From IMG/VR virus record IMGVR_UViG_2840054979_000001, positions 34,281 to 98,280 of that record: DNA of 64,000 nt, one strand, 5' to 3'. Source of the DNA: a virus. Taxonomy: Duplodnaviria > Caudoviricetes. Positions 17,797 through 64,000 of this stretch are shown piece after piece. The translations under genes were made by a program, and so were the position numbers. How positions within the stretch are numbered: the first letter of the stretch is position 1; each line of letters opens with the position of its first letter. Under the pieces are notes generated by a model. The model was given only the letters and a program-made list of their open reading frames with translations, had not been told where the DNA came from and ran no database searches.

Positions 17797-17882
17797 CCCT
17801 GGACCTCCTTGTTTCCGGGATCGGCGAACACTACTCGACCCGGGAGATGCCGTTGCCCGGCCGGTATCCCTCCTGGCACTAC

Positions 17883-17933
17883 TCGCCGCAAACATTGACT
17901 ACCGTAGCCGTCTCTGCTACAGTATTAAGGGTG
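17883..17933 (+). promoter_or_regulatory. class I (sigma-A-like) promoter with inverted repeat, leaderless
   Basis: TCGCCGCA-N4-TTGACT-N17-TACAGT-N7-GTG; ACCGTAG-N9-CTACAGT. Confidence 0.8.
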
Positions 17934-18173
17934 ATCAACCCCACCAACCACTCGGAGGACTACCAGCACGGCATCGACATCGGCCTCAAGACGCCAGCGC
18001 ACCTGCTCGACATCACGTTGCAGCGACGCAGCTTCGACGTCGCCACATTGACCGACACGATCGCCAGCCAGGAAGGCGCCGGGGTCGAAAGCCACGTGCT
18101 CGACACCTACCGCCGGAAGCTGGCACAGAAACGAGGCATCGTCGACGCCATCAACCAGCGCCTCACCGCCTGA
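17931..18173 (+). CDS. hypothetical early protein
   Basis: Leaderless GTG at the predicted TSS. Confidence 0.6.
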   Translation: MINPTNHSEDYQHGIDIGLKTPAHLLDITLQRRSFDVATLTDTIASQEGAGVESHVLDTYRRKLAQKRGIVDAINQRLTA

Positions 18174-18187
18174 TCGCCCCTGATCGC

Positions 18188-18220
18188 CGGCGAGGGAAGC
18201 GCCGACGTCGAAAGGAACCC
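18188..18220 (+). promoter_or_regulatory. AGGGAAG-loop leader, copy 2 (orphan, no start codon)
   Basis: CGGCG-AGGGAAG-CGCCG..GAAAGGAACCC. Confidence 0.7.
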
Positions 18221-18304: not shown

Positions 18305-18343
18305 TGCCGGGAAGGGAAGCCCGGCACCGAAAGGAACCCGATG
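18305..18343 (+). promoter_or_regulatory. AGGGAAG-loop leader, copy 3
   Basis: TGCCGGG-AAGGGAAG-CCCGGCA..GAAAGGAACCCG-ATG. Confidence 0.85.
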
Positions 18344-20340: not shown

Positions 20341-20343
20341 ATC

Positions 20344-20394
20344 TCGCCGCACACCTTGACTACTGTAGCCCTTCAGACTACAGTAGGTGTTGTG
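20344..20394 (+). promoter_or_regulatory. class I promoter/operator, leaderless
   Basis: TCGCCGCA-N4-TTGACT-N17-TACAGT-N7-GTG; perfect TACTGTAG-N9-CTACAGTA. Confidence 0.85.
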
Positions 20395-20652
20395 AACAAC
20401 ACCTATCGAGCCACCGTCTACCCGGCACCGCCAGAGTTGCGCGACCGACCGGGTATGACGCTCGCCCGCATCTTCGACAACGCCGCCGACGCCCTCGACT
20501 GGGTGTGCTCGAAGATCAGCCACGCCCGCGAGCGAGGCGACATCGAGGAACTCGCCGACAACGGCGACATCGACCACAACGGCGTCTGGATCAGCTGCTA
20601 CCGCAGCCGTGGAGGAAGCATCAAGATCGACGGCTACTCCCAGGTCGCCTGA
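20392..20652 (+). CDS. hypothetical early protein
   Basis: Leaderless GTG. Confidence 0.6.
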   Translation: MNNTYRATVYPAPPELRDRPGMTLARIFDNAADALDWVCSKISHARERGDIEELADNGDIDHNGVWISCYRSRGGSIKIDGYSQVA

Positions 20653-22321: not shown

Positions 22322-22366
22322 GTCGGGGAGGGAAGCCCCGACACCATCTGAAAGGAATCCGAAATG
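22322..22366 (+). promoter_or_regulatory. AGGGAAG-loop leader, copy 5
   Basis: GTCGGGG-AGGGAAG-CCCCGAC..GAAAGGAATCC..ATG. Confidence 0.85.
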
Positions 22367-23554
22367 CCAATCCAGCTGAACCCCCGTCTCCTGTCGTGGG
22401 CGCCCGACCTCGAAGACTCCGCCCGCGACCAGGCTGTCAACACGTCGAAGCTGCCGTTCCTCGCGGGCCACGTCGCGTTGATGCCCGACGCCCACTGGGG
22501 GATGGGTGCCACCGTCGGCTCCGTCATCCCGACCGAGGGTGCGATCGTGCCGGCTGCGGTCGGTGTCGACATCGGCTGCGGCATGATCGCCGCGCGCACC
22601 GACCTCACCTCGCACGATCTGCCCGACGATCTCGATCGGCTGCACGCCATGATCGGCGAAGGGATCCCGCACGGTGCCGGCCAGCAGCACGACGACGGTC
22701 GCTCCATCCCGCCGACCAACGGCGCGTCGGTCGCTCTCACGCATCGCCTGTTCGACAAGGCGCAGCATCAGATGGGCACGCTCGGTGGCGGCAACCACTT
22801 CGTCGAGGTGTGCTTGGACGAGCTCGACCGGGTGTGGATCGTCCTGCACTCCGGTAGCCGCGGCGTCGGCAAAGAACTCGCCGAGGTCCACATCGACAAG
22901 GCGAAGGGCCTGATGAAGTCGTACTTCATCGACCTGCCCGACCCCGACCTCGCCTACCTGGCCGAAGGGACGCCGGAGTTCGCCGACTACATCGGCGACA
23001 TGCTGTGGGCCCAGCGGTACGCGATGCGGAACCGCGAGCAGATGCTGATGGCCGCGCACGAAGCATTCGACGACTTCCTCGGCCGTGGCGTCGTGATCGA
23101 GGACGTCATCAACTGCCACCACAACTTCACCGAACGCGAGCACCACCGCGGCCGGAACGTGTGGCTGACCCGCAAGGGAGCGATCCGGGCCCGGACGGGT
23201 GACCGTGGTGTGATCCCCGGCTCGATGGGCGCGGCTTCGTACATCGTGTCCGGTCTCGGCAACCCGGCCAGCTACGACTCGTGCTCTCACGGCGCCGGGC
23301 GTCGCATGTCGCGGGCGAAGGCGTTCGCGACGTTCACGGCCGACTCGTTGATCGAAGCGATGGCCGGCAAGGCGTGGAACGGCGCCGGCGAGGCCGCGGA
23401 CCTGGTCGACGAGCATCCCGGCTCGTACAAGGACATCGACGAGGTGATGGCGAACCAGGCCGACCTCGTCACCGTCGAGCACACGCTGCACCAGATCCTG
23501 AACTTGAAGGGCAAGGACGACCGCAACCGGCGTCGCCGCAAGGGTCGCCGCTGA
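22364..23554 (+). CDS. rtcB: RtcB RNA-splicing/repair ligase
   Basis: MPDAH.G.G, VGVDIGCG, GTLGGGNHF, HSGSRG, HHN, RKGA, IPGSMG, SHGAGR, YKDI. Confidence 0.97.
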   Translation: MPIQLNPRLLSWAPDLEDSARDQAVNTSKLPFLAGHVALMPDAHWGMGATVGSVIPTEGAIVPAAVGVDIGCGMIAARTDLTSHDLPDDLDRLHAMIGEGIPHGAGQQHDDGRSIPPTNGASVALTHRLFDKAQHQMGTLGGGNHFVEVCLDELDRVWIVLHSGSRGVGKELAEVHIDKAKGLMKSYFIDLPDPDLAYLAEGTPEFADYIGDMLWAQRYAMRNREQMLMAAHEAFDDFLGRGVVIEDVINCHHNFTEREHHRGRNVWLTRKGAIRARTGDRGVIPGSMGAASYIVSGLGNPASYDSCSHGAGRRMSRAKAFATFTADSLIEAMAGKAWNGAGEAADLVDEHPGSYKDIDEVMANQADLVTVEHTLHQILNLKGKDDRNRRRRKGRR

Positions 23555-32069: not shown

Positions 32070-32083
32070 CTTCCCGACACACC

Positions 32084-32125
32084 TTGCCAACTGTCGCCCA
32101 ATAGACTACAGTAGTAGAGGTCAAC
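32084..32125 (+). promoter_or_regulatory. class I promoter/operator
   Basis: TTGCCA-N17-TACAGT-N7-GTCAAC; ACTGTCG-N9-CTACAGT. Confidence 0.75.
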
Positions 32126-32133
32126 CAACACCA

Positions 32134-32177
32134 CCCCCGGGAAGGGAAGCCCGGGGGCATCGAAAGGAACCAACGTG
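32134..32177 (+). promoter_or_regulatory. AGGGAAG-loop leader, copy 6
   Basis: CCCCCGGG-AAGGGAAG-CCCGGGGG..GAAAGGAACC..GTG. Confidence 0.85.
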
Positions 32178-33191
32178 AGACTCCGTCGAACACTCGCGGC
32201 CGCGGCCATCGCGACCGCCATCCCGCTCGCCGTCACCGCCGGCGTAGCGTCCGCCCACACGAACGACTCGAGCGTCGACTGCTCAGGCCTGTCCGTCACC
32301 GGCTCCGCCTACTGGGAGTCGCCGATCCTGCTGTCGGCCACCGTGAACGGTGAGACGACCGAGTGGGCGGTGTCCGGTCCGAACTTCAACGCTCGGTTCC
32401 CGTTCAACTACGCCGGCGACAACACCTGGTCGTACTCGATCGACCCGCCCGGCAACGCACACGACGTGTCGCGTTCGGGTGTGACCGAGGGGTGTGGTGG
32501 CCCCGTCTTGACGACGACCACAGCGGTCCCGCCCGTCACCGACCCGCCCGAGACAGATCCGCCCGAGACAGATCCTCCCGCCACCGACCCGCCAGCCCCG
32601 GTCTACGAGTTCGACCTCGACGTCGACTGCGACGACTGGTCGATCACCGCGATCACCGACGTCGTCTTCTTCATCGACGGCGGCCAGTACTACATGCCGG
32701 CCGGTACGACCGGCTACGGGTCGCAGCTGCCCGGCGACGAGACCGCGATCACGATCAACGGTGTCACCTACAGCCTCGTTGCCGACGACTGCACGCCGCC
32801 CACCGACCCGCCGGCCACCGACCCGCCGCCGACCGACCCGCCGGCCACCGATCCCCCGGCGACCGATCCCCCGGCGACCAACCCTCCCGAGACCGATCCT
32901 CCCGCGACGGACCCCGAGCCGACGGACCCGATCGACACGACCGAACCGCCCGCGGGACCGCCCACGACGGCAACCTCCGGCGCCGGGCCGAACACGACCG
33001 CACCCAGCGAGCCGCTCCCCGCACCGACACCGACCGACCCGGGCAACACGCCGCCCGCAGATCCGGCGCCCGCGGGCGAACTGCCCGCCACCGGTACCGG
33101 CACCGTCGTGCTCGTCGGCATCGCGGGCATCGCCCTGATCGCCGGCGCACTCGCGATCGGCCTGACCCGCCTGCGCCGCCAGCCCTCCTAG
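32175..33191 (+). CDS. LPXTG sortase-anchored surface protein with TDPP repeats
   Basis: Signal peptide (ASA), two small Cys-bridged domains, TDPP(E/A/P) repeats, LPATG + TM + RLRR tail. Confidence 0.85.
   Translation: MRLRRTLAAAAIATAIPLAVTAGVASAHTNDSSVDCSGLSVTGSAYWESPILLSATVNGETTEWAVSGPNFNARFPFNYAGDNTWSYSIDPPGNAHDVSRSGVTEGCGGPVLTTTTAVPPVTDPPETDPPETDPPATDPPAPVYEFDLDVDCDDWSITAITDVVFFIDGGQYYMPAGTTGYGSQLPGDETAITINGVTYSLVADDCTPPTDPPATDPPPTDPPATDPPATDPPATNPPETDPPATDPEPTDPIDTTEPPAGPPTTATSGAGPNTTAPSEPLPAPTPTDPGNTPPADPAPAGELPATGTGTVVLVGIAGIALIAGALAIGLTRLRRQPS
32802..32930 (+). repeat. 15-bp tandem repeat encoding TDPPx (second block ~32538-32600)
   Basis: ACCGACCCGCCGGCC-type units. Confidence 0.85.
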
Positions 33192-33282
33192 CCACGCCCG
33201 CCCTGCCCGTGAACGGGCGGTCCGTGCGCCACTCAGCAGCACGGACCGCCCGTCTCGCGTCCGCCCACGAAAGGAGATCGTC

Positions 33283-33513
33283 GTGGACGCCTTCATCACG
33301 TCGAGCGCCCGCAAGCACGGCCTCTCCGACGACGACATCTGGAACTGCTACCGCAACTTCCACCTCGAGCGCTGGGATGACGACGACGAGCTCTGCTGGC
33401 GCTACGGCACCGACCTCGCCGGCAACGACCTTGAGATAGCGTTTCTGACGAGATCCGATGACGTCGACGTCATCGTTCACGCCCTGCGGGTGGCGCACCC
33501 GCCGACACCATGA
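33283..33513 (+). CDS. putative type II toxin (RelE/HigB-like actinobacterial family)
   Basis: ITSSARKHG.SDDDI...G.D..G..LEI...IVHA; GAAAGGAG SD. Confidence 0.65.
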   Translation: MDAFITSSARKHGLSDDDIWNCYRNFHLERWDDDDELCWRYGTDLAGNDLEIAFLTRSDDVDVIVHALRVAHPPTP

Positions 33514-33785: not shown

Positions 33786-33798
33786 CCAGGCGCTTTTC

Positions 33799-33852
33799 TC
33801 GCCGCACCCCTTGACAACTGTAGCCGTCTAGACTACGGTTAGAGGGGTCAAC
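33799..33852 (+). promoter_or_regulatory. class I promoter/operator
   Basis: TCGCCGCA-N4-TTGACA-N17-TACGGT-N7-GTCAAC; ACTGTAG-N9-CTACGGT. Confidence 0.85.
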
Positions 33853-33860
33853 AACTCCAC

Positions 33861-37855: not shown

Positions 37856-38197
37856 TCAGTCCGGGTCGGCGGCCGGCCAGTCCGACTGCACGACCAGCTG
37901 GGCTCGGCCTTTCGACGGCCATGTCCAGCGTGCACCGGACCCGAACGCGACGACGATCCTGACGTCGTAGGTCCCCTGGTCGGCGTCGACGAGCCACGAG
38001 CCGAGCTCGATCCGCACCGTGCGCGCGTCTGCGTCGACGAGCTCGCCGGCGAGCTCGACCCGTGGGTCGAGGCGGCCCCGGCGGACTTCGCCGGTCACGG
38101 ACACGACCGACTCGAGCGCGGTGATCCCGTCGAGTCGGGCGTCGATCGACGCTCCGATGTCGCCAGCGGTCCGCGTCCATGTCCCGTTCACTGGCAT
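37856..38197 (-). CDS. small Ig/BppU-N-like virion-associated protein
   Basis: GGAGG SD; G.YDVRI.V.F..G..WTWP beta-sandwich pattern. Confidence 0.6.
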   Translation of the reverse strand: MPVNGTWTRTAGDIGASIDARLDGITALESVVSVTGEVRRGRLDPRVELAGELVDADARTVRIELGSWLVDADQGTYDVRIVVAFGSGARWTWPSKGRAQLVVQSDWPAADPD

Positions 38198-41100
38198 TGG
38201 CAGCCTCCTTCGAGTGTGGCGATCACGTAGTCGGGGTCGAGCGTCTGGATCATCAGCGGACCGCAGATCGTCGGCTCGCTGCCGAACACCCACGCCGCGT
38301 CGCGGACGGTGACGACCACGACGGTCGGCTCGCCGCCCCAGGTCGCTGCCCCTGGGGTCCAGACGCCGTCGTCCGGTGCGGCCTCGACGAGCACCGGGTC
38401 GATGATCCAGGTCTGCGGCTCCGCTCCCGTGGCCCACGGCCCATCGTCGACTGTGACGGTGACGGCGGCCGCATCGACGTGCCAGGTCGTTGCGCCGGCC
38501 GTCCAGACGCCGTCCTCGGCCGCAACGACGACAGTGACCGGCTCGGCGGTCCAGGCCGCTTCACCGGACACCCAGGCACCGTCGTCAGCAGTGACGACGA
38601 CCGCAGCCGGGTCGCCCGACCACGTCGTCGGCCCCGCTGTCCAGACGCCGTCGTCGACGGTGACGGTCACGATGATCGGTTCGGTCGTGAACGCAGCGAG
38701 CGTCACCCAGGCGCCGTCGGCTACGGCCACCGCGACCCCGGCCGCATCGCCGGTCCATGTCACCGCCGTGGTCCACGCGTCGTCGACGGCCGTCACCTCG
38801 ATCACGGCCGGGTCGATGTCCCAGGTTTGCGGCTCGGGGTCCGGCACGCTCGCCGGCATGGTGACCGACCAGCCGCGGGCGATCAACGCCGCACGGTCGT
38901 CGTCGGTCGCGGCCGCCGGCGCGGCAGCGTCGTCCATGCGAAGGTTGCCGTTCGACGCGCCGAGCGTGTTCAGCGTCTCGAGGTACAGGCTCGCCGTGGC
39001 GCTGTCGATTGGGTTGGAGTGCGCGAGGACCGAACGCAGCAGCGGCGAGATCGGGGCGTCGTAGGTCGTGATGCCGGTGTCCCACACCCACCACTGCTCG
39101 ACGACCGGCAGCTGCGACATGGGCAGGTGCTGGGTGACGTTCTGCACCCGGACGCAGTAGTGCCACAGCGCCAGCATCGGTGTGTCGCTGACGAAGCCGA
39201 TCGTCGCGGCGCCCGACTGCTGGTTGGCGCACCGAAGGTCCTGCAGCGTGCCGGCGAGCGGTGTCAGGTCGATGGTGCCGGACAGGTCGTTCTGCTCCAT
39301 GCACAGCCGGATCATGCTGTCGCAGCCGGTGAAGTCGATCGACGTGACCTCGGCCTGGTAGCACTCGACGTGCGTCAACGCTGCGAGGCCGCTGACGTCG
39401 AGGTGGCCGGTCAGCCCGGATTGGGCGGCGAAGAAGTGCTTGAGGCCTGTGCAATGGGTGAGGCCGGTGATGCCGGTGAGCGACTGCGGCGCCCAGTTGA
39501 ATGTCGCGGGCAGGTTGTCGCGGCCGGAGTCCTGCGTGTTGTCGTAGCCGAGGTTGATGAACTCGACGTCGCCGATGGCCTGTGCGCCGCCGTCGAGCAC
39601 CCGCATGACGACCACGCCGTCGACGGGAGCGGTGATCGACGGTGTGATACCGGTGGCGAGTAGGGCGTCGCTGGAGTCGCGCCACTCGACCGTGGCGGTC
39701 GACCCCGCTACGAGTCCGATCCACGGTGCGAACGTTCCGGAGACACCCGTCATCGTGACGCCGGCTGGCGCTGCTGCGGTGACGAGCGGGTCGATCCAGT
39801 ACCAGGCGTCCGTTGTGGCGAACGGGACCGTTGATCCGGCAGTGTCGCCGTTGTAGTGCGAGGTCGGCTGCGTCGCCTCCAGCAGACCGAGCCTCGACGG
39901 CTGCTGGTCAACGAAGTAGGCGGCCCATCGGGCGAGGTCGAAGTTCGCTGATGCCTCAGCCGAGATCCAGATGCACCGAGGAACCCCGGCCGTCAGGGCG
40001 ACGGGCTCGTCGAATAGGTAGGTGGACCAGCCTGGCGACGGGAACGGTCCGGAGTAGCCAGCGAGAGTGGCCACGGCGGCTGCTCCGCCATCGATCGGGC
40101 CGACGTAGATCGTCTCGGTGATCGTCTCGGCCGGCGCTGCCGGGCCCACGTGCCAGGTGCGCACGCCGTGCAGGTGCACGTCGACGGTCGGCGTGAACGC
40201 GAAGCCGCGCCGGTGGGTGGCGTTCCACCACTGAATGTGCTGGCCGTCGCCGCCGGCACTGACGTGGATCGGGCCGACGTCATCGACGGTGAGGAACGAG
40301 TCGTACGCCGGCGCCGGCGGCGCCCCGGGCGTCGCGCTGACTGCCGTCGACGCCGGGCCGGTTCCGACCTCGTTGATCGCCGACACCCGGTACCAGTACG
40401 TCGAACCGTTGACCACGTCGGTGTCGAGGTAGGTCGTCGCGGTGCTCGTGCCGTCGGCGAGCGTCGACCACGCACCGGGCGCTCCGGCGACATCGGGTGC
40501 CCGTTCGACGACGTAGTCGGTGATCGGCGATCCGCCGTCGGCCGGCGTCGTCCAGGCGAGCTCGACTTCGGCGTCGCCCGGCGTCGCCACCAGGCCGGTG
40601 ACCTGTGCTGGCGGGTCAGGCTCCGGTGGCAGGTCGCCGGCCTCGAAGTTGTCGGCGATACCGCGCATCGCCGAATCGGAGAAGAAGCCCCAGCCGAACC
40701 CGACCTTGGTGCCGGTGAGCGGCTCGGACGGATCGGTGTACGTGATGACCGGTGTGTCGAGGTCGTCGACGTAGGCCCGAAGCTCGGTCGCCGTGCCGTC
40801 GAGGTCTCTCGCCTCCAGGCGGAACCGGTGGATGCCGGTCAGGTCGCCGATCACCGCCGATGTCAGATCGGAACCCGCCCCGCCTCCGGTGTTCTTGCGA
40901 AGCCAGAGAGTGGTGTAGGCGGGCCAGTAGTACAGCATGTAGCCGTCGAGCCAGGGGAACTCGAACACGCCGTTGGATCGCAGTGTGCACGACGTGGTCT
41001 CACCGTTGTCGCAGTCCATGTCGACCTGCGAGTACTGGTTCAGGGTGACGCAGTCGCCTGCCCACACGAGTTGATCGCGTCCGTTGCCGGTCGTCGTGAC

Positions 41101-42336
41101 CGCTTGGCTGTTGACACGGGTAACGCCGGAGCCGTTGACCAGGATCCAGTGGGGCGCGAGGGGACCGTCGCCGGCGAAGTCGTCGGAGAACGCTGCGAGC
41201 GGCGGCGGGTCGGGCACGAAGTCGAACGTTTGGGCGTAGCCGAGATCGCCTGGCTCGGACTGCCACCACACCACGAACCGGGTGTCGCTGATCTTCTTGA
41301 TATAGGGGTCGACGCCTCCGGTGAACACGGCGACCTGACTGCCGGGGTCTGTCGTCACCGCCCATGTCGTCGAGTCGACGGTGATGACGTCGACGAAGAT
41401 GTCCGAGGCGGCGTCGCGGCGGGCCCGCACCACGCTGTAGACGCCGGCGACCTCGGACATCAACGTCATGGTCTGCGGCCGTTCGGCCGACAGCGTGAAC
41501 GCCGAGGCAGGCAGACTCGTCGGCGTGCCGATAGCGGTGATCGCCCAGGTCGCCAGGTCGACCTCGAGCACCTGACCGAACGTCGCGCCTGTGGTGGCAT
41601 TCGTCCACACGGCGAGGAAGTGGTTGGCGTCGAGGCGTTGCAGCGAGTTCTGGCGGCCCTCGGTGGTGTCGAACTCGAGGACCGACAGTTCGCTGATCTG
41701 GTAGGTGGACGCGTCGACGTTGAGCACCTTGGCGAACCCGTCGTTGTTGGCGCCGTCGTAGGTGACGAGGTACTTCGTGTCGTCGTCGTTGATCTTCGAG
41801 ACGGCCGGGCCCATGCCGTTGGTCGTGTCGAACTCGAACGAGTGGAGCGTCGACGGCACGCCGGCCGTCACCTGGATCGTGGATGCCCAGCCGTCGTTGG
41901 CGTCGCCGCGGTACACGACGAGGAAGATGTCGCCGGTCACGACCTCGACGTCCTGGGAGCTCGTGAAGGCCGGGTCGTACTCCAACGCCGGGCCGGTCGA
42001 CGTGATGTCCCATGTCGAGTCGTTGACGGTCAACACCTGGGCGAACCCGTCATTGTCTACCGACCGGTAAAAGACCACCGGCTGATAGGGCGTTGCACCG
42101 ACGGCGACGTAGGGCCGGGACTCCGCTGCGCCGATCGGGTCGAACTCGAACGGGGTGCCGACCTGGGTGATCGTCCCCGCGGCGTCGATGTGGTGGATGA
42201 CGGCGAAGCCATCGGACCCGACGACCTGGTAGGCGACGACCCAGTGCGTGTCGTCGAGCCGTGCGGCGTTCGGCGTCATGCCGACTTCGGTGCCCGACCA
42301 GTTCGACGGGGTGCCGATCGGCTCTACGGTCGCCAT
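38188..42336 (-). CDS. 1382-aa multidomain fibre/adhesin-like protein (propeller repeats, lectin-like, FN3, LRR, C-terminal W-repeats)
   Basis: Repeated 'DGFA.V...EFD' blades; FN3 (LAWTTP.DGGSPITDY...YWYRVSAIN.VG.G); LRR; ~23-aa W..DP..V.VT..DG.W repeats. Confidence 0.8.
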   Translation of the reverse strand: MATVEPIGTPSNWSGTEVGMTPNAARLDDTHWVVAYQVVGSDGFAVIHHIDAAGTITQVGTPFEFDPIGAAESRPYVAVGATPYQPVVFYRSVDNDGFAQVLTVNDSTWDITSTGPALEYDPAFTSSQDVEVVTGDIFLVVYRGDANDGWASTIQVTAGVPSTLHSFEFDTTNGMGPAVSKINDDDTKYLVTYDGANNDGFAKVLNVDASTYQISELSVLEFDTTEGRQNSLQRLDANHFLAVWTNATTGATFGQVLEVDLATWAITAIGTPTSLPASAFTLSAERPQTMTLMSEVAGVYSVVRARRDAASDIFVDVITVDSTTWAVTTDPGSQVAVFTGGVDPYIKKISDTRFVVWWQSEPGDLGYAQTFDFVPDPPPLAAFSDDFAGDGPLAPHWILVNGSGVTRVNSQAVTTTGNGRDQLVWAGDCVTLNQYSQVDMDCDNGETTSCTLRSNGVFEFPWLDGYMLYYWPAYTTLWLRKNTGGGAGSDLTSAVIGDLTGIHRFRLEARDLDGTATELRAYVDDLDTPVITYTDPSEPLTGTKVGFGWGFFSDSAMRGIADNFEAGDLPPEPDPPAQVTGLVATPGDAEVELAWTTPADGGSPITDYVVERAPDVAGAPGAWSTLADGTSTATTYLDTDVVNGSTYWYRVSAINEVGTGPASTAVSATPGAPPAPAYDSFLTVDDVGPIHVSAGGDGQHIQWWNATHRRGFAFTPTVDVHLHGVRTWHVGPAAPAETITETIYVGPIDGGAAAVATLAGYSGPFPSPGWSTYLFDEPVALTAGVPRCIWISAEASANFDLARWAAYFVDQQPSRLGLLEATQPTSHYNGDTAGSTVPFATTDAWYWIDPLVTAAAPAGVTMTGVSGTFAPWIGLVAGSTATVEWRDSSDALLATGITPSITAPVDGVVVMRVLDGGAQAIGDVEFINLGYDNTQDSGRDNLPATFNWAPQSLTGITGLTHCTGLKHFFAAQSGLTGHLDVSGLAALTHVECYQAEVTSIDFTGCDSMIRLCMEQNDLSGTIDLTPLAGTLQDLRCANQQSGAATIGFVSDTPMLALWHYCVRVQNVTQHLPMSQLPVVEQWWVWDTGITTYDAPISPLLRSVLAHSNPIDSATASLYLETLNTLGASNGNLRMDDAAAPAAATDDDRAALIARGWSVTMPASVPDPEPQTWDIDPAVIEVTAVDDAWTTAVTWTGDAAGVAVAVADGAWVTLAAFTTEPIIVTVTVDDGVWTAGPTTWSGDPAAVVVTADDGAWVSGEAAWTAEPVTVVVAAEDGVWTAGATTWHVDAAAVTVTVDDGPWATGAEPQTWIIDPVLVEAAPDDGVWTPGAATWGGEPTVVVVTVRDAAWVFGSEPTICGPLMIQTLDPDYVIATLEGGCQCQ

Positions 42337-49773: not shown

Positions 49774-52700
49774 GCCTCGCCAAAGCGTTCGTCGAGATCC
49801 ACCCGGACCTCGGGCGATTCGACAGCGAGGTCCGCGACGAGATCCGCGAGGCAATGGCTTCCGCGGCCCGCGCCGCGGCGTCTGCGTTCGAGCGGACGTT
49901 CGACGGAGCATTTGCCAGTGCTGGAGCAGCAGCCGACCGCGCCGGCGAATCCGTCACGTCCGCATTCCGAGAGGCGGCCTCCCAGTCCGACCTTCATCTC
50001 GACAGCATCGGCGGCGCTGACGTTTTCTCCGAACTCGGCGGCCAAGCAGACCGCGCAGGTGAAGCGGTCGAGCGAGCGTTCGACGAGGCCGCGCGGCAGT
50101 CGAACAACTCGTTGGACCGGATCGACGCGAAGGGCGTCGGCGTGTTCGGCCGGATCACCGCGGGCATCGCCGCGCTCGGGCTGGCCGCGGGCGGCGTCGG
50201 ACTGACGAGATGGGGTCTCGAGACCGCCGGCGCTCTCGAGCAAACCCAGGTCGGCTTCGAGGGTCTGCTCGGTTCGGGTGAGGCCGCCGAAGCGATGATG
50301 GAGCGGATCACCGAATACGCGGCTCGCACGCCGCTGGAACTGCCCGGCCTGTCGAACATGACCCGTCAGCTGTTGGCGACCGGCACGGCGTTCGGCGTCA
50401 CCGAGGGGAACGTCCTCGACTACGTCACGGTGATCGGAGACATGACATCGGTGCTTGGCGGCAGCCAGGCGGAGATGGACGCGGTCACGTTGACGTTGGG
50501 CCGGCTCGGGTCGGCGACCAACGCGCAGATCGGCGACTTCGAGATGTTGCAGACGGCGCTGCCCGGCTTCAACGTGTGGGCCGAGCTCGGTGCCGGCATG
50601 AACATGACCGCCGGTGAAGCCCGCGAGCTCGCCAGCAAGGGTCTGCTGCCTGGCGCCCAGGCCGCCGAGATCCTCCTTGAACGGATGGAGCAGTTCCCGG
50701 GGGCTGCGGGAGCGATGGAAGCCCAGTCCAAGACGCTGATCGGCGTCCTGTCGACGTTCAAGGACACCGCCGCGATCGCGCTGGCTGAGGGGCTGACGCC
50801 GCTCGTCGAGGGGTTGAAGGAGACCCTCGCCGGCGACGAACTGCTCTCGTCGCTTGAGGGGGCATTCAACTCGTTCGGCGAGCTCGCCGCCGGCCTCTTC
50901 GACGCCATCGGTCCCGCGCTGCCCGGTCTCCTCGACACCCTCGCCGTCGTATTCGACGATCTCGGACGCGTCATCATTGCGTTGACGCCGGCGATCGAAC
51001 CACTGCTGGCGATCTTCGGCGAGCTCGCCACCCTGTTCTCCGGGACGCTGGCCGACCTGTTCGAAGAGATCGGCCCGTCGCTCGTCATCATCGTCGAAGC
51101 ATTCAGCGAACTGGGCGACGCGTTGCGGCCTGTCGTTCGCATCATGGCCGGCAGCCTCGCCATCGCGTTCCGCGCCTTCGCCAAGGTCATCGAGTTCCTG
51201 GAACCGGCGCTGCCGCTGCTCGTCAACGCGTTCATCGCCTGGTCGATCGCCACCCGGATCGCAGCCGCGGCGCAGGCCGCGTTGAACCTCGTGATGGCGG
51301 CGAACCCGATCGGGTTGATCGTGATCGCTCTCGTCGGGCTTGGCGCCGCGCTGTACGCCGCGTATCGCCGCTTCGAACCGGTCCGCAACGCCGTCGACTC
51401 GCTGTGGCAGGGGATGCAGGACCTGTGGGACGTCATCACGAACCGGGTCGTCGCGGTCTGGCAGAACCGGCTGCTGCCGATCGTGCAGGAGCTCTCCCCC
51501 ATCCTCGACGGCGTCCGATCGGCGATCTCGAGTGTCGTCGACGCCTTCCGGGCGCTGTTCTCCGGCGACTTCTCCGGCGCACTCGAGGCGCTGCGCGACG
51601 CGTTCTCATCGCTGTGGGAAGGCATCACGAACGTCGACTGGGGCCGCATCGGCGAGCTCACCATCGACGCCCTGATCTCCGCGCTACAGCTGGCATGGGA
51701 CGGGCTGCAGTCGCTCGGCGATGTGCTCGGGGACGTCGCCGGCCGGTTCGTCGAGTGGTTCGAGAGCGTCGACTGGGCAGCGGTCGGGTCCACGATGCTC
51801 GACCTGCTGGCGACCGCGGTGAGCACCGGCTTCGACGCGCTCGGCTCGGTGGCGTCGTGGTTCGGTGACCTGGTCGGCAAGTTCACCCAATGGCTCGGCA
51901 CCATCGACTGGGCGTCGATCGGCTCGTCGATCGTCGGCTTCCTCGGCAACGCCGCGTCGCTCGCCTGGTCGGCCCTCGGCTCCGTCGCCGGCTGGTTCGG
52001 CGACCTGATCGGCAAGTTCACAGCATGGCTCGACGGTGTCGACTGGTCGGCGGTCGGATCAGCGATCGTGGACGGTCTCGGTGCCGCAGCCGGAGCCGCG
52101 TGGTCGGCTCTCGTGTCGGTGGCGCCGTGGTTCGCTGACCTGGCCGCCAAGTTCACCGCTTGGATCAGCGGCGTCGACTGGGCGTCGATCGGAGGGGCGT
52201 TCCTCAACGCCCTCGGTCTCGCCGTCGCCACCGCGTTCCAGGGCCTCGGCAGCGTCGCGTCGTGGTTCGGTGACATCGTCACGAAGCTGTCCGACTGGAT
52301 CAGCGCCGTCAACTGGGATGACGTCGGGTCGAACATCGGCGACTGGGTCGGCCAGCTGCCCGGCAAGCTCATCGGCTGGATCGCCGATGCCTTCTCCGGC
52401 GGAGGGGGCGGAGGCGGCGGCGGCGGGGGCGGCGGCCCCGATTGGAGCGGCATCGCCCTCAACGTCCTCGAGGGAATCGGCAACGCCCTGCTCGCACTCG
52501 GCGTCGAACTGCCGATCGCGGTCGTCACCGCTCTCGGCGAACTCGCGCTCGGGATCATGACCGGGATCGGCGAAGCACTCATCGAGGACGACAACCTCGA
52601 ACCGGTCAAATCGTTCTTCACCGGGTTGCCCGGCCGACTGTGGGATTGGGTCGTCGAGTCGGTAACCGACCTGGCCAACATCGGCAAGCGGATCTTGCTG

Positions 52701-58894: not shown

Positions 58895-60793
58895 GTGATC
58901 CTCGACAGATCCGGCGACGGCGCCTGGGTGCCCGTCGACCCGTACACCTGGGATCCGGTCGCCGAGGACTGGGTGATGCTCAACGCCGTGCACCGCGTCG
59001 TCAACGGCGCGCTGGAACGGCAGTGGCCCGAACCGACCCCGCAAGTCACCGGATTCACGGTGACCCCTGTCTACTCGGCCGGCCCCGACCGGTACGTCAC
59101 CACGCTGACGTGGGACACGTTGCCATACTCGCCGATCTATCGAGTCGAGTACCGCTACGGGCCCGAAGGTGGCGCGCTCGGCGACTGGATGTTGTTCTTC
59201 GCGTCCACTGATCCGCCGCCGTCCGCCGGCTGGTTGCTGACGGGCCGGATGAGCTACCAGTTCCGTATCCGGGCCACGACGTTCGCCGGGACCGGCCCGT
59301 GGTCCAACATCGTGTCGTTCACAACCGGACCGACCAAGGAGCACGTCGGCTCCCCGGCCATCTCCGCGGCCGGCCTCACCTACAACGCCACCGCGGACCG
59401 CTACGAGATCGACATTCACTGGTCCGCGCCGCAGTTCGCCGAGACCTACGACCTCGAGTACCGCTACAACGCTGGCAGCGGCGTGAGCGCGTGGACGCCG
59501 ATCGAGGCCGACACGACAGCGAACATGCGCGCCATGACCGGCATGTGGGGCCAGACGCTCCACGAGTGGCGGGTCCGGGCGAAGAACCCATCAGGGGTCT
59601 CGCCGTGGTCAGCGACGTTCGCTCTCGTCACCGGGATGCAGAAGCCGTACATCGCCGTGACGGGCGGGTCGTGGGTGAACTTCGTCTACCGGTACAACGT
59701 CACGGTGTCGCGGCCGAACGTCGGACCGAGCCGAGCACAGCCTGGCTACTACCAGGTGACGTCGAGTGCCGTGTCGTTCCTACGGCACTCGAACGGGACA
59801 CAGCCAGCCGGTGTCGTATCGACCGTCAACCCGAGATCGGGCCAGACGAACGCCTACTCCATGACGATCGGCGCGTCGGGCGCCACCCCCGGCATCGTGT
59901 ACCGATTCACCTGCTCGTTCGCAGCCACGGGACGGGCCTCGGTCTCGGACATCACCACGGCGACACAACCCGCGGTCGCTCCACCCACCGTGCCGACCGG
60001 AGTGAACGGCCGGTTCACGTCCGGCCGGTTTGTCGCGTCGTGGAACGCGGTCACCAACGCCGAGCTCTACCGCGTCCGGGTCTATCGAGCCAGCGACGGC
60101 GTGCTGATCGGCGAGACGACAACGAGCTCGACGTCGCTCGCCGTTGGCACGGCGGGCCAGTACGCCGCCAACGCCGCGTACTTCTGCTGGGTGCGTGCCG
60201 AGAACGACTCCGGCGTCTCAGGCTGGGAGGACTCGCCCTCACGGATCAAGCGGGCCAACCCGCTGATGATCCACGCGACCACGTCGAACACGTGGCGCAA
60301 TGGCGTGTGGCGCAACGACGCTGACGACATCTTCCAGGGATACAGCCCGGCCGGCATGAACTACGGCGTCTACGGCTACGGCAACCAGTTCGCCGCGCTG
60401 CTCTCCCCGTCGGTGATCGGCTACTCGGTCGACGTCACCCTGTTCCAGACGTTCTTCTACCGACGCGTCGCCGGCGCCGCCGGCGAATCGTTGACCGGCA
60501 TCTACCTGCATAAGCAGCTGCACGCCGGCGACGGCACCTTCGACACCGCGATCGCCGGCGGCCACCGCCAGAACGCCGCCCGCAACACGATCGAGACGTT
60601 CACGCTGCCGAACTCGTGGGCCGACCTGTTGATCGCCGGCAGCTACCGCGGCCTGTGCCTGTGGGCGCCCGAAACGAACCTGGTGTCCGGCTACGGAAAC
60701 GTCGCCCCCCACTACCAGATCAACAGCCGGCACACCGTCGGGCTGTCACCGAACGTCAACGTCGGCACGTGCGCGATCTACCACAACGGCTGA
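58895..60793 (+). CDS. FN3-repeat tail fibre/receptor-binding-like protein
   Basis: Three or more FN3 motifs (YQFRIRA..G.GPWS; WRVRAKN.SG.SPWS; VRAEN.SG.SGW); AGGAGG SD. Confidence 0.75.
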   Translation: MILDRSGDGAWVPVDPYTWDPVAEDWVMLNAVHRVVNGALERQWPEPTPQVTGFTVTPVYSAGPDRYVTTLTWDTLPYSPIYRVEYRYGPEGGALGDWMLFFASTDPPPSAGWLLTGRMSYQFRIRATTFAGTGPWSNIVSFTTGPTKEHVGSPAISAAGLTYNATADRYEIDIHWSAPQFAETYDLEYRYNAGSGVSAWTPIEADTTANMRAMTGMWGQTLHEWRVRAKNPSGVSPWSATFALVTGMQKPYIAVTGGSWVNFVYRYNVTVSRPNVGPSRAQPGYYQVTSSAVSFLRHSNGTQPAGVVSTVNPRSGQTNAYSMTIGASGATPGIVYRFTCSFAATGRASVSDITTATQPAVAPPTVPTGVNGRFTSGRFVASWNAVTNAELYRVRVYRASDGVLIGETTTSSTSLAVGTAGQYAANAAYFCWVRAENDSGVSGWEDSPSRIKRANPLMIHATTSNTWRNGVWRNDADDIFQGYSPAGMNYGVYGYGNQFAALLSPSVIGYSVDVTLFQTFFYRRVAGAAGESLTGIYLHKQLHAGDGTFDTAIAGGHRQNAARNTIETFTLPNSWADLLIAGSYRGLCLWAPETNLVSGYGNVAPHYQINSRHTVGLSPNVNVGTCAIYHNG

Positions 60794-60836
60794 TGCGTCT
60801 CACGTATCATGATGTGCGACCCGAAGGAGGTCCGAC

Positions 60837-61262
60837 ATGACGTTCACCGTTTGGCTCCGCGACACCGCTGAGCGTGCCATCTCCACGATCGTCCAAGCGG
60901 CGATCGTGTTCGTCATCGCCGCCGGCGCCGTCCTCGACGACGCCGAATGGTGGAAGGGCCTCGTCGCCGCATTGATACCCGGCGCCTTCAACGTCATCAA
61001 GCAGGCGTTCGAATCGTGGATCCCGACACCGACCAGCTGGGCAGCCGACATGGCCGTCCGGGCATTCTGGACCTTCGTCATCACGCTCGCCGGCGCCGCC
61101 ACCGCCGCCGGCTTCGAACTGTTCTCCACGTCGGCCTGGCAGACCATCGCCCTCGTCGCCCTGACCGCCGCTCTCGCCATCGCCAAGGCCGGCCTCGCGG
61201 CACGTTGGGCCACCGACGAGACCGCACGCCTCACCCCGGCGAGCTTCGCCAAGGCAGCGTGA
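60837..61262 (+). CDS. holin, tandem r1t-like domains
   Basis: DTAERAISTIVQA and DMAVRAFWTFV; four TM segments; AAGGAGG SD. Confidence 0.75.
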   Translation: MTFTVWLRDTAERAISTIVQAAIVFVIAAGAVLDDAEWWKGLVAALIPGAFNVIKQAFESWIPTPTSWAADMAVRAFWTFVITLAGAATAAGFELFSTSAWQTIALVALTAALAIAKAGLAARWATDETARLTPASFAKAA

Positions 61263-61459
61263 TGGCCAGGCCAGCGCGTTCCTGCTGCGGCGCTCCGCCC
61301 GCGCCGGCAACCACCCCTCCGGCGCGGGCGGCGACAGTCGAGTACGTCGTCATGGGCACGGCCAACCGGATGTTCGACGCCGTCTTCCCCACCCTCGACG
61401 AGGCCAAGGCCCACCAGGCAATCCACGGCGGCAAGGTGCGGTCGCGATCGGTGGCGTAG
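61262..61459 (+). CDS. small hypothetical protein
   Basis: TGATG coupling; CCG N-terminus and F.T..EA.A....GG.V pattern. Confidence 0.55.
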   Translation: MARPARSCCGAPPAPATTPPARAATVEYVVMGTANRMFDAVFPTLDEAKAHQAIHGGKVRSRSVA

Positions 61460-61608
61460 CCCTCGGTAGAGTGGTTCTCAGCCGAGCAGTCCTACTTCCC
61501 AATTTGGATTGTCAGGCCAGAGGCCCCCGCAGCCGGTCCGGGATTTCCGGGTGTTGAGCTCCGCTCCACCCCCGGGTTCCTTTCGACGGACCGCCACTGC
61601 GGGGGCCT
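61460..61608 (+). ncRNA. candidate structured small RNA complementary to the leader motif
   Basis: Three stem-loops with G-U pairs favouring the + strand; CUUCCC loop; CGGGUUCCUUUCGACG. Confidence 0.5.
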
Positions 61609-61649
61609 TGCCTTCTGTCGTCGAATCAGCTACAGTTATAGAGGTCAAC
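61608..61649 (+). promoter_or_regulatory. class I promoter/operator
   Basis: TTGCCT-N17-TACAGT-N7-GTCAAC. Confidence 0.75.
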
Positions 61650-61655
61650 CACCAC

Positions 61656-61694
61656 TCCGGGAAGGGAAGCCCGGACGCTGAAAGGAACCCGATG
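61656..61694 (+). promoter_or_regulatory. AGGGAAG-loop leader, copy 9
   Basis: TCCGGG-AAGGGAAG-CCCGGA..GAAAGGAACCCG-ATG. Confidence 0.85.
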
Positions 61695-62165
61695 ACGATC
61701 ATCCAGATCGACCTCGACGTCGACGACCCCGCAGTCCTCGACCGAGTGCTCCTCCCAGGAGTCACGATGCCGGACCCCGACGACTGCATCCCTCCGATCA
61801 CCGTCGCCGACGAGCTCGTCACGCTCGTGCGCGACGCCGCGTACGAAGCGGTCGAACCGTTCGACGGCATCGACGTCGCCGATGTCCGCACCCGACGCCG
61901 CGGCGGCGTGAAGCTCGAGGTCGCCTACGAGTCGGTGACCGGACGGGTCGTGCTCGCCGTCGTGCGCGACGGCCACCAGGTCGGCACGGTCGTCCAGACC
62001 GCCGAGTACCGATGGAAGGCCGAGGCCCGCCGCTACGACCAGCCTCGGCTCGGCCAGCAGGCGCACGCGCTCGGCCAGGTGTTCTCCACGTCGGCGCTCG
62101 CCGCGGCCGCCGTCGTCGAAGCACACGACCGGCTCGGCGAAGTCACCACGATTGGAGCGTTCTGA
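61692..62165 (+). CDS. hypothetical early protein
   Basis: Conserved leader. Confidence 0.7.
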   Translation: MTIIQIDLDVDDPAVLDRVLLPGVTMPDPDDCIPPITVADELVTLVRDAAYEAVEPFDGIDVADVRTRRRGGVKLEVAYESVTGRVVLAVVRDGHQVGTVVQTAEYRWKAEARRYDQPRLGQQAHALGQVFSTSALAAAAVVEAHDRLGEVTTIGAF

Positions 62166-62350
62166 TGGACCCCGACGCCGCCATCAGGCTGATGCACGAC
62201 ACCGACCACGACCCCGAGAACAGTCGCGCCGCAGCCGAAGGCCTGCTCGACTGGCTTCGCCGTGACGGCTTCCCGCCAGCCGGCATGACCGCCGACCAGG
62301 CGTCGATCGACGCAGGCCAGGTGCTCGCCGAACTCGGGATGCCGGCATGA
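62165..62350 (+). CDS. small conserved actinophage protein
   Basis: MDPDA...L.DWL..GFPP pattern. Confidence 0.65.
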   Translation: MDPDAAIRLMHDTDHDPENSRAAAEGLLDWLRRDGFPPAGMTADQASIDAGQVLAELGMPA

Positions 62351-62928
62351 CGCTGTTCGACGACGTCCGCTCGATCATCGACGAGGTGATGGGCGGCGAC
62401 CCGCTCAACGACGCCGACGAAGGTCCGATCGGCGTCGACCGGGCCGCCGAACTCGTCCACCAGTACCACCGGCTCGGCGAAGACATCGCCGAAGCCGCCG
62501 ACATGTACCAGCGGGCGATCGACAAGCTCGTCGACGCCCGCAACGGCCACCTCGAACCGCTCGAGGCCGAGCGCGACCACATCGAGACGGTGCTGCGCCT
62601 GTGGCACGCCGCCCGCTACGCCGAGGACGGCAAGGCGACGATCAAGCTGCCGACCGGCACGCTGTCGTCGTCGAAGGCCCAGGACGCGTGGACCTACCAC
62701 GACGAGTCGGCGTTCATCACCTGGGCCAAGGACAACGCTCCCGACGCCCTCCGCCAGCCCGAGCCGCCGCCGATCCAGGTCGCCAAGACCGAAGCCCGCA
62801 AGTCGCTCGAGGCGCTGATCGCGATCAACGACGACGGCACCGTCGTCGACCGGTCGACCGGTGAGATCGTCCCCGGCCTCCGTGTCACCCCTGGCGGGTA
62901 CCGCGGACGTCACTACCACGTCAAGTAA
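62347..62928 (+). CDS. Mu Gam-like host-nuclease inhibitor
   Basis: Coiled coil then KATIKLPTGTL...W, K...K, TGEIVPGL.V. Confidence 0.75.
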   Translation: MTLFDDVRSIIDEVMGGDPLNDADEGPIGVDRAAELVHQYHRLGEDIAEAADMYQRAIDKLVDARNGHLEPLEAERDHIETVLRLWHAARYAEDGKATIKLPTGTLSSSKAQDAWTYHDESAFITWAKDNAPDALRQPEPPPIQVAKTEARKSLEALIAINDDGTVVDRSTGEIVPGLRVTPGGYRGRHYHVK

Positions 62929-62933
62929 CCCGT

Positions 62934-62977
62934 CGGCGGGGAGGGAAGCCCCGCCGCCATCGAAAGGAACCCTCATG
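62934..62977 (+). promoter_or_regulatory. AGGGAAG-loop leader, copy 10
   Basis: CGGCGGGG-AGGGAAG-CCCCGCCG..GAAAGGAACCC..ATG. Confidence 0.85.
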
Positions 62978-64000
62978 ACATTCACCCCGACCGTCCGACC
63001 GCCCACCGGGGTCCCTGCGGCGCCGCTCATCATGGTGTCGGGCCCGCCGAAGGCCGGCAAGTCCGTCGTCGGCTACAAGCTTGGCCTGTCCGAACGCATC
63101 GACCACTGCTGGGTGATCGACCTCGGCGAAGGCTCGGCCGACGAGTACGGGGCGCTGGGCTGCTACGACGTGCTCGAGTGGGGCTCGTCGTGGTCGAACC
63201 TGACCGACTCGGTGAAGTGGTGCGTGAGCCAGCGGCCCGCCGACGGCAAGCTGAACGCCGTCATCATCGACTCCGGCACCGAGGTGTGGGAAGGGCTCAA
63301 GGATCGAGCGACTCACCGGGCCCGTGGCTCGAGGAAGAACCGGGCCGAGCTCGCCAAGGACCCCGACTTCGAGGTCGACGTGTCGATGAACTACTGGAAC
63401 GACGCTGCGAACACGTGGGGCGGCATCGTCGGGCCGCTCAAGACGGCGCCGCACGTCGTCGGCGTGATCCTGGTGCGCGCCGACATCGTCGCCGAGGTCG
63501 TCAACGGCCAGCCGACGAAGAACAAGGTCGTGTCGCTGCAGGCCCACAAGAGCCTGCCGGCGACGGTGACCGCCCATGTCGAGGTGCGGCCCGATCACAG
63601 CGCCTGGTTCACCGAGGTCCGCTCGATGGAGGTGCAACTCCCCGCCAAGGGGTTGAAGCTCGACGCAGCGAACCCGCTCGGCCAGGTGCTCGACATGCTC
63701 GCCCCCGACGAGGGCAGCTTCGGTGAGTCGGTGGCCGTCAAGCCGTCCGACGACGAACGGCCCCGCGAAGTCGTTCAGACGGTGACCGCCGAGCAGGCCG
63801 CCCGGCTGCTCGAGCAGATGAACTCGATCACCGACGCAGAGACGATGAAGCAGGTGAAGTGGCGGTTCAAGGAGACGTTCGGCCTACCCGGCGACGTACC
63901 GGCGTCCAGAGCCGCCGAGGCGATCGACTGGGTGGCCGACGAGGTCGCCAAGGCCAACGGCATCACGGAGTCCCCTGACGGCGCTGAGGCGGCCGCCTGA
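62975..64000 (+). CDS. AAA_24/Sak4-like recombination ATPase
   Basis: Walker A GPPKAGKS, IDLGEGSADEY, Walker B VIIDS; adjacent to Gam-like gene. Confidence 0.8.
   Translation: MTFTPTVRPPTGVPAAPLIMVSGPPKAGKSVVGYKLGLSERIDHCWVIDLGEGSADEYGALGCYDVLEWGSSWSNLTDSVKWCVSQRPADGKLNAVIIDSGTEVWEGLKDRATHRARGSRKNRAELAKDPDFEVDVSMNYWNDAANTWGGIVGPLKTAPHVVGVILVRADIVAEVVNGQPTKNKVVSLQAHKSLPATVTAHVEVRPDHSAWFTEVRSMEVQLPAKGLKLDAANPLGQVLDMLAPDEGSFGESVAVKPSDDERPREVVQTVTAEQAARLLEQMNSITDAETMKQVKWRFKETFGLPGDVPASRAAEAIDWVADEVAKANGITESPDGAEAAA

Follow-up and report, generated by a model that had tools for sequence, protein, structure and literature searches.

The 3' end of the late (head-tail-lysis) transcript of an actinobacterial-type prophage is predicted to fold, from position 61480 to about 61615 of the window (the whole 64,000-nt stretch of DNA that was analysed), into an RNA element that carries the only reversed copy of the motif found in front of the phage's non-structural genes. 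It is proposed that this element is a terminator-embedded antisense RNA which blocks ribosome binding on those genes late in infection, a reading to which we assign a probability of roughly 0.45. That the element terminates and stabilises the late transcript is probable as judged from its position, because it lies at the end of the head-tail-lysis operon, which has no leaders, and right up against the next promoter.

The window corresponds to C23:163544-227543 of an actinobacterial-type, metagenome-derived assembly (G000) of 6.2 Mb in 73 contigs with 68.6% G+C, and is part of a prophage of about 98.8 kb (~99 kb). The prophage ends are a 51-bp direct repeat (C23:129061-129111 and C23:227923-227973) overlapping a tRNA-Lys gene, with a tyrosine integrase just inside the left end (C23:129861-130439); the element is 2.8 kb from the right end, and an attP or cos reading of it is ruled out by the positions of the att repeat and the integrase. 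No tRNA or tmRNA gene was found in the 64-kb window. The genes around the element are all on the + strand; those upstream encode the major head (42979), major tail, adaptor and minor tail proteins, an amidase/LysM lysin, a holin-like protein and a 65-aa protein, and a leftward fn3-domain gene (38188-42336) sits between this head-tail-lysis block and the genes on its left. The late/lysis operon ends with the 65-aa gene, orf65 (61262-61459, + strand), which starts at an ATG overlapping the stop codon of the holin-like gene (60837-61262) and whose product matches no family in Pfam or PHROG; the element follows orf65 directly, in agreement with the initial annotation, which had placed the RNA at the end of the late/lysis transcript. 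The leader motif is absent from 34324 to 61680, that is, throughout the head-tail-lysis block. On the other side lies a repeated promoter (61608-61636, + strand; repeat families D11/D12) with a -35 TTGCCT, a 17-nt spacer and a -10 TACAGT, which carries the partial palindrome CTGTCG..CTACAG and belongs to the palindromic promoters TTGCCT-17-TACAGT, of which the prophage has about 11 copies. The base of hairpin C, described below, overlaps the -35 and upstream edge of this promoter, and no comparable discrete hairpin precedes the other 10 copies. The promoter is followed by leader copy 9 (61656-61694, + strand), which consists of the hairpin UCCGGG-AAGGGAAG-CCCGGA and then GAAAGGAACCC (61680-61690) before the ATG at 61692 of a 157-aa gene.

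The + strand of 61460-61625 folds to -85.4 kcal/mol (z -4.52; none of 200 shuffles reaches this stability), and the computed structure contains all three hairpins, A (61462-61486), B and C, that the initial annotation had described. Hairpin B (61480-61519, + strand) includes the pairing initially described, CAGUCC with GGAUUG (61487-61492 with 61506-61511), but its stem is longer by GCC/GGC (61481-61483 with 61515-61517). The loop of hairpin B, UACUUCCCAAUUU, is 13 nt long (61493-61505) and wholly unpaired, with an opening cost of 0.05 kcal/mol; it displays CUUCCC at 61495-61500, the complement of GGGAAG in the leader loops. Hairpin C (61520-61609, + strand; 90 nt) features a 13-bp G+C-rich base (61521-61533 with 61597-61609) that begins 61 nt past the orf65 stop, a 7-bp helix (CGGUCCG/CGGACCG), a 6-nt bulge and an apical domain, in total about 30 stacked pairs with small bulges; the 100-nt windows over it rank 7th in stability among non-overlapping windows of 100 kb (z -3.1). 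The bulge, UUUCGA (61581-61586), has an unpaired probability of at least 0.7-0.99 and belongs to the anti-RBS segment GGGUUCCUUUCGACG (61574-61588, + strand) in the 3' arm, the reverse complement of (CGUC)GAAAGGAACCC; the UCC of this segment is held in a weak 2-3-bp helix. No Rfam 15 covariance model matches at gathering score in the window, and the single match in 61300-61800 is at chance level (E 2.5).

Conservation of the element was assessed in a single relative. The leader pattern was found at 58 loci in genome contigs, 2 in viral contigs and 103 in metagenomes; all 163 were inspected, each a single match, and the only true relative among them is L100, a 1,075-bp metagenome contig spanning the holin, orf65, the element, the promoter, the leader and the next gene. 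DNA searches of phage records gave no match to the prophage, and the portal protein reached at best 31% identity over 877 of these records; in 400 genomes of the family DNA searches returned only chance matches of 20-28 nt, in 10 genomes, and no relatives were found with the portal protein in 8 genomes of the genus or with two neighbouring proteins as queries in viral contigs. Identity to L100 is 86% for the holin-like gene (76% at third positions) and 84% for orf65 (66% at third positions, the least conserved; 92% for the protein), 94% for the promoter at 61608-61636, 95% for leader copy 9 and 70% for the gene after it. Hairpins B and C together are 91.5% identical (118/129), whereas third positions in the codons of the two genes upstream reach 73% (149/204; Fisher p 3e-5), a difference that points to selection on the B-C element in the comparison with L100. 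Hairpin A does not share in this: at 70% identity, with its 5' arm replaced and its stem lost in L100, it is not part of the conserved element in which the initial annotation had included it.

The pattern of change within the element follows its structure. Hairpin C is 92% identical with no pair-breaking changes, and the 11 substitutions in B-C comprise 7 at unpaired positions and 4 that keep their pairs through G-U, so that 0 of 44 pairs are broken. The 4 stem substitutions are G-U compatible on the + strand only and become A-C on the - strand; for this reason the window/L100 consensus fold is 14 kcal/mol better on the + strand (-72.3 versus -57.9 kcal/mol), which bears out the earlier remark that G-U pairs favour the + strand. 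Loop B has 3 changes in L100, all of them 3' of UACUUCCCAA, which is itself unchanged. Of 21 positions in the anti-RBS arm none is changed, against 3 of 21 in its partner arm, an asymmetry that is not significant (p 0.23); one of the partner-arm changes removes a pair beside the bulge, loosening the small helix. Both CUUCCC and the anti-RBS, the conservation of which in leader-keeping relatives had been named as a check on the antisense proposal, are thus unchanged in the only relative; the comparison of RNA with leader involves this one relative, in which the motifs on both sides are identical. The candidate -10 of a promoter belonging to the element itself, TAGAGT (61467-61472, + strand; TANNNT type), owes its standing to conservation: TAGAGTGG is identical in L100 at 8 of 8 positions with both flanks diverged, the conserved block begins at 61479/61480, 7-8 nt after it, and the start is predicted near A61480. 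This 8-nt island of identity speaks for the promoter initially suggested; there is no -35 match, and a promoter scan of 59000-64000 made no call. The case for a discrete stable RNA comes from the conserved TAGAGT together with the terminator-like 3' end. Contigs from two metatranscriptome runs of the same study did not align to the stretch, a result that speaks neither for nor against transcription.

The complementarity between the element and the leader motif is exact over a considerable length. GGGTTCCTTTCGACG (61574-61588) is the exact reverse complement, over 15 nt, of CGTCGAAAGGAACCC at 18206-18220, and the match extends over 13 nt for the copies at 18329 and 20699 and 12 nt for the copy at 61680, the same lengths as had been reported for copies 2, 3, 4 and 9. 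If at most one mismatch is allowed, the window has 10 occurrences of GAAAGGAACCC where 0.47 would be expected, 9 on the + strand and one on the - strand; the + strand of the prophage has 16 copies of GAAAGGAACC and its - strand one, and both of these reversed occurrences are the site inside hairpin C. The remainder of the genome (~6.1 Mb, both strands together) has 5 copies of GAAAGGAACC. Given the base composition, chance would produce the exact 11-mer complement 0.012 times per prophage strand and 1.8e-5 times in 149 nt; the match is a real signal, because the reversed copy is unique and its expectation per prophage strand is this low. The 6-nt CUUCCC match taken alone is within chance, as the + strand of the 99 kb has 16 copies of it and the 6-mer for comparison was freely chosen in the initial annotation. 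Loop B and the anti-RBS are also not in an order colinear with their leader targets.

The target set is larger than the ten leaders first counted, since the prophage has 17 + strand copies of the motif, 16 of which sit 2-7 nt before a start codon; the leaders also have a hairpin with a GGAAGGGAAG loop. The 16 genes include those for ParB-like, sliding-clamp-like, RtcB and Sak4-like proteins and several without assigned function, and no recognised virion or lysis gene is among them. This restriction to non-structural genes is consistent with the late shut-off envisaged in the initial annotation. The host 16S tail (...GGAUCACCUCCUUUCU) pairs only with GAAAGGA of the motif, the ACCC part of which cannot pair. 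GAAAGGAACCC is an ordinary strong RBS in unrelated phages too, and the 16-mer of the anti-RBS is found at 18 loci in viral contigs, all unrelated, at 13 of which it is a reversed RBS beside a start codon.

Energy calculations indicate that pairing of the RNA with the leaders is feasible and specific. In a scan that combines partition-function opening energies with local duplex energies, opening UUCCUUUCGA costs 3.5 kcal/mol and opening GGGUUCCUUUCGA 7.5; for the anti-RBS the cost ranges from 3.5 to 16 kcal/mol by length; one half of the segment lies in the 6-nt bulge, the other in helices that are weak or strong. For 15 of the 17 leaders the anti-RBS scores best (-7.1 to -15.2 kcal/mol), and loop B with GGGAAG is the best site for the other 2 and the usual second site. 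The mean for the element over 6 leaders is -13.0 kcal/mol, against -4.6 +/- 1.9 for 68 random 133-nt segments of the prophage, the best of which attains -9.7; as none of the 68 equals the element, the predicted energies favour the leader pairing proposed for it. A nested cofold of element and leaders gives 0 to -4.8 kcal/mol, never uses the anti-RBS and never opens hairpin C; this method is unable to represent pairing from a bulge. Most of the anti-RBS is within a very stable hairpin, and therefore pairing must nucleate from the 6-nt bulge. The alternative once offered, that the element occludes only copy 9 in cis, is unsupported, since the fold of the read-through transcript leaves copy 9 with an unpaired SD and does not open hairpin C.

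It is hypothesized from these features that 61480 to about 61615 is transcribed as the folded 3' end of the late transcript, and perhaps also from the TAGAGT promoter of the element itself. Hairpin C would halt late transcription right before the next promoter and shield the 3' end; because it stops transcription and protects this end, an RNA of about 135 nt comprising B and C may build up during late gene expression. The bulge-centred GGGUUCCUUUCGA would then pair with the start-associated motif GAAAGGAACCC, 2-7 nt before 16 non-structural start codons. Since this interaction would involve 11-15 bp, compared with 7 bp for the host 16S tail, the 30S subunit is predicted to be out-competed and translation of the 16 genes to be shut off late. 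The CUUCCC loop of hairpin B would offer a second contact, to the GGGAAG loop of the leader hairpin, and repression of the leaders would depend on UUCCUUUC of the B+C RNA. If true, the mechanism would be a further device by which phages time gene expression, a multi-gene switch at the level of translation in which RNA-RNA pairing competes with the 16S tail, and would provide a portable repressor/operator pair for actinobacterial genetics.

The main rival view, less probable than the antisense reading, is that B and C are only a terminator and 3' stabiliser which insulates the next promoter, the reversed motif being a captured leader fragment retained merely as a paired stem without function in trans; the element would then be an unusually elaborate terminator. 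Its location directly after the last late gene, with a base that abuts the -35 of the next promoter, fits this well, as does the 13-bp G+C stem followed by UUGCCUUCUGU, and like an intrinsic terminator the element is a G+C-rich stem at an operon end with a partly U-rich tail. The tail, however, contains 6 U among 11 nt and never more than 2 in a row, the scan of 59000-64000 called no U-run terminator and 0 terminator-like sites, and the 'loop' is a 64-nt structured domain rather than one of 3-8 nt. That every substitution preserves structure would be explained by termination, and the nested cofold, which shows no gain from pairing, and the non-significant arm asymmetry are also in keeping with it; yet the basal stem would suffice for this purpose, whereas the 64-nt inner domain is conserved, and so is hairpin B, which is dispensable for termination. 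Chance, at 1.8e-5 per 149 nt, is a poor source for an 11-mer of the phage's own RBS motif (a 15-mer with one copy), and the core of the motif is found in a conserved bulge beside a weak, non-conserved helix, not in the strong stem. The other operon junctions of this phage are also without such an element.

Control in cis is improbable by comparison with both the antisense and the terminator interpretations; here helix C would be an RNase III-type processing site (retroregulation of late mRNA stability), or else the reversed motif would be bound, as DNA or as RNA, by the factor that also reads the leaders and would control the promoter at 61608-61636. The long helix of about 30 stacked pairs with small bulges is suited to processing and the overlap with the upstream edge of the promoter to factor binding, and the authors who described the start-associated sequence (SAS) of Cluster K mycobacteriophages leave open, in the part of their account available, whether its ligand is protein or RNA (Pope 2011). 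No factor is known, however, and the strictly one-way orientation of the leaders at start codons argues for a strand-specific role at the RNA level; the downstream leader is not occluded in a read-through transcript, and no such element accompanies the other 10 copies of the promoter. Very improbable is a - strand micro-gene with the reversed motif as its real RBS, a 25-codon frame from GTG 61569 to TAG 61492 (61492-61569, - strand), for although the GTG stands 4 nt past the motif, within the 2-7 nt seen for real leaders, the frame is uninterrupted in the window and in L100 alike, and the same 16-mer so often serves as a reversed RBS beside a start codon in unrelated viral contigs (13 of 18), 5 of its 25 residues differ with only 2 synonymous codon changes (orf65: 5 of 64 differ, 92% identical), its GC3 is about 60% (by eye) against 80-93% for selected high-GC3 frames of the window, 4 of 4 stem substitutions break - strand pairs and leave the - consensus fold 14 kcal/mol weaker, no - strand promoter is evident, and the neighbouring genes are all on the + strand.

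The antisense RNA proposed here has partial counterparts among known regulators. Bacterial sRNAs that derive from 3'-UTRs or are embedded in terminators share the terminator with the upstream mRNA and usually have their seed 5' of the terminator hairpin, and in the C-rich-loop sRNAs of Gram-positives and actinobacteria a pyrimidine-rich loop faces purine-rich, RBS-like targets. The prophage element resembles these in having a terminator shared with an mRNA and a CUUCCC loop; it differs from the 3'-UTR sRNAs in that its anti-RBS is inside the terminator hairpin, with no known chaperone or processing site. Antisense RNAs of the c4 kind, such as the CI RNA of satellite P4, are found in phages and their satellites. 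The c4 RNA of P1 and P7 is described as a structured phage RNA with exposed segments that pair around an RBS and block translation at more than one target site (PMC12197685). The shared feature, as far as the available description goes, is a structured phage RNA with short segments that pair, or in the prophage would pair, at more than one RBS-region site; c4 targets its own operon and one antirepressor and acts in immunity, whereas the prophage element is proposed to address about 16 dispersed genes. Further, the prophage RNA ends another operon and one of its complementary segments is a bulge in a terminator stem, and the two have no sequence or Rfam relationship. By analogy, the element appears to work like a c4-type antisense RNA combined with a 3'-UTR sRNA, and is a member of no described RNA family.

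The closest parallel is with the Cluster K mycobacteriophages, in which a 13-bp SAS precedes the start codons of non-structural genes and has conserved bases unable to pair with 16S rRNA (Pope 2011). The K1 phages are reported to have one reversed SAS, the role of which is given as unknown (Pope 2011); for Adephagia, Angelica and CrimD these sites are listed in Fig. S3 of that paper. The ESAS are promoters with inverted repeats (Adephagia paper). The role of SAS is still called unknown or ill-defined in the text available from papers of 2024 and 2025, and no antisense partner was found proposed in the passages of SAS articles that were covered. Both systems feature a short asymmetric motif that unites an SD with conserved bases unable to pair with 16S; in both, as far as the published accounts at hand describe them, the motif is confined to non-structural genes and stands 2-7 nt ahead of their start codons, an inverted-repeat promoter precedes a subset, and exactly one opposite-orientation copy is tied to no gene start. 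The consensus is GGGATAGGAGCCC in Cluster K and GAAAGGAACCC in the prophage, the phages share no protein or DNA similarity, and the prophage leaders each add a GGAAGGGAAG-loop hairpin; moreover, the reversed copy is in a bulged stem at the late-operon 3' end in the prophage and in a 5'-leader loop in K1. Judged by this analogy, the leader system of the prophage seems to work like SAS/ESAS without sharing its sequence. The SAS has been catalogued since 2011, and an unrelated prophage now shows the same layout, its sole reversed motif being part of a structured, conserved RNA with which the late operon ends.

The reversed SAS of the K1 phages can itself be placed in a hairpin loop of a late-operon leader. 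That of Anaya lies in a 385-nt gene-free gap between gp96 and gp97 and that of Adephagia in the gap between genes 92 and 93, where late transcription of Adephagia is reported to start (Adephagia paper); in both phages it forms the 10-nt loop CCUCCUAUCC of a strong hairpin. This hairpin should be on the leader transcript of the late operon, the start of the transcript being inferred. It is conceivable, though we consider it unlikely, that in actinobacteriophages the start-associated sequences serve to dock a late-transcript antisense RNA that has arisen twice, in the late-operon 5' leader of K1-type Cluster K phages and in the late-operon 3' terminator domain of this prophage lineage; rising late transcription would then let the RNA out-compete the ribosome on all SAS-bearing non-structural mRNAs, and the early-to-late switch would be timed at the level of translation. 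Adephagia and Anaya in M. smegmatis are a cultivable system for testing such loop-SAS pairing. Among 15 aligned Cluster K phages, 7 have the anti-SAS loop, 5 a related pyrimidine-rich loop that is only about 8/10 complementary, 2 no loop and 1 a different one. Loop and SAS do not covary among the 15, because imperfect loops occur where Unicorn and Amgine nonetheless keep the SAS consensus. The gap with the reversed SAS is conserved in 182 Cluster K records, and an invariant GCTTTTAGACT box, which itself follows a canonical terminator, precedes the hairpin by about 100 nt.

The prophage (~98.8 kb) is delimited by a pair of 51-bp direct repeats that overlaps a tRNA-Lys, the left copy at G000:C23:129061-129111 and the right at G000:C23:227923-227973, ~380 nt past the end of the window; a tyrosine integrase is encoded at C23:129861-130439, and a tRNA-Trp gene (C23:227630-227704) lies within the right end of the prophage.

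A leader here is a hairpin plus the start-associated motif found before start codons of non-structural genes. The copy at window 18210-18220 contains both hairpin and motif with no start codon after it, and the next complete leader and its gene begin 119 nt beyond; it is therefore a tandem or orphan leader. The RtcB RNA ligase gene (22364-23554) bears the leader motif, and the RtcB-like gene of the Cluster K phage Anaya likewise has an upstream start-associated sequence (SAS), in diverged form. The leader-bearing gene at 32175-33191 contains 15-nt repeats (32513-32935) encoding a Pro/Thr/Asp-rich stretch.

Immediately 3' of this last gene is a hairpin with a 16-bp perfect stem and no U tail (33208-33262); GGCGGTCCGT is common to its arm and to the reverse complement of the 3' arm of hairpin C, the structure at the end of the late operon. 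Two very stable hairpins occupy a gap at G000:C23:157296-157430, ~6.2 kb left of the window, directly followed by a variant leader with the loop UGGGAAGU. For the - strand of this gap ARAGORN predicts a 'tRNA-Arg(gcg)' of 94 nt, which is probably a false call; the hairpin pair is possibly the prophage's second structured RNA.

A gene-free region is conserved in Cluster K, at L182 39683-40067 (Anaya record 59682-60066) and as homologues in 182 Cluster K records, some of which have hypothetical proteins annotated across it. It features a canonical terminator, an invariant GCTTTTAGACT box and three conserved hairpins, in that order; the third has a pyrimidine-rich loop, which in K1 phages is the reversed SAS (anti-SAS). 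In the Adephagia paper, gp39 is listed with an Hfq-like fold.

The prophage also contains ~11 copies of a promoter-like repeat, 5-6 of them upstream of the window and the others at 17881-17942, 20342-20403, 32070-32131, 33797-33858 and 61606-61655. Each is laid out as TTGACT/TTGCCT, a 17-18 nt spacer and TACAGT, the two hexamer regions making the palindrome CTGTAG..CTACAG, with conserved CTCGCCGCAC upstream and GTCAAC downstream. The repeats resemble a family of operator-promoters and invite comparison with the extended SAS (ESAS) of Cluster K.

The sole long - strand gene in the window (38188-42336) encodes a 1,382-aa fn3-domain protein, has 69-nt internal repeats and separates the head gene from the non-structural genes. 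A tape-measure-sized gene (1,659 aa) contains three 135-nt tandem repeats (51837-52241), and a 76-aa ORF at 33283-33513 has a match (E 9e-6) to a PHROG with the label toxin.
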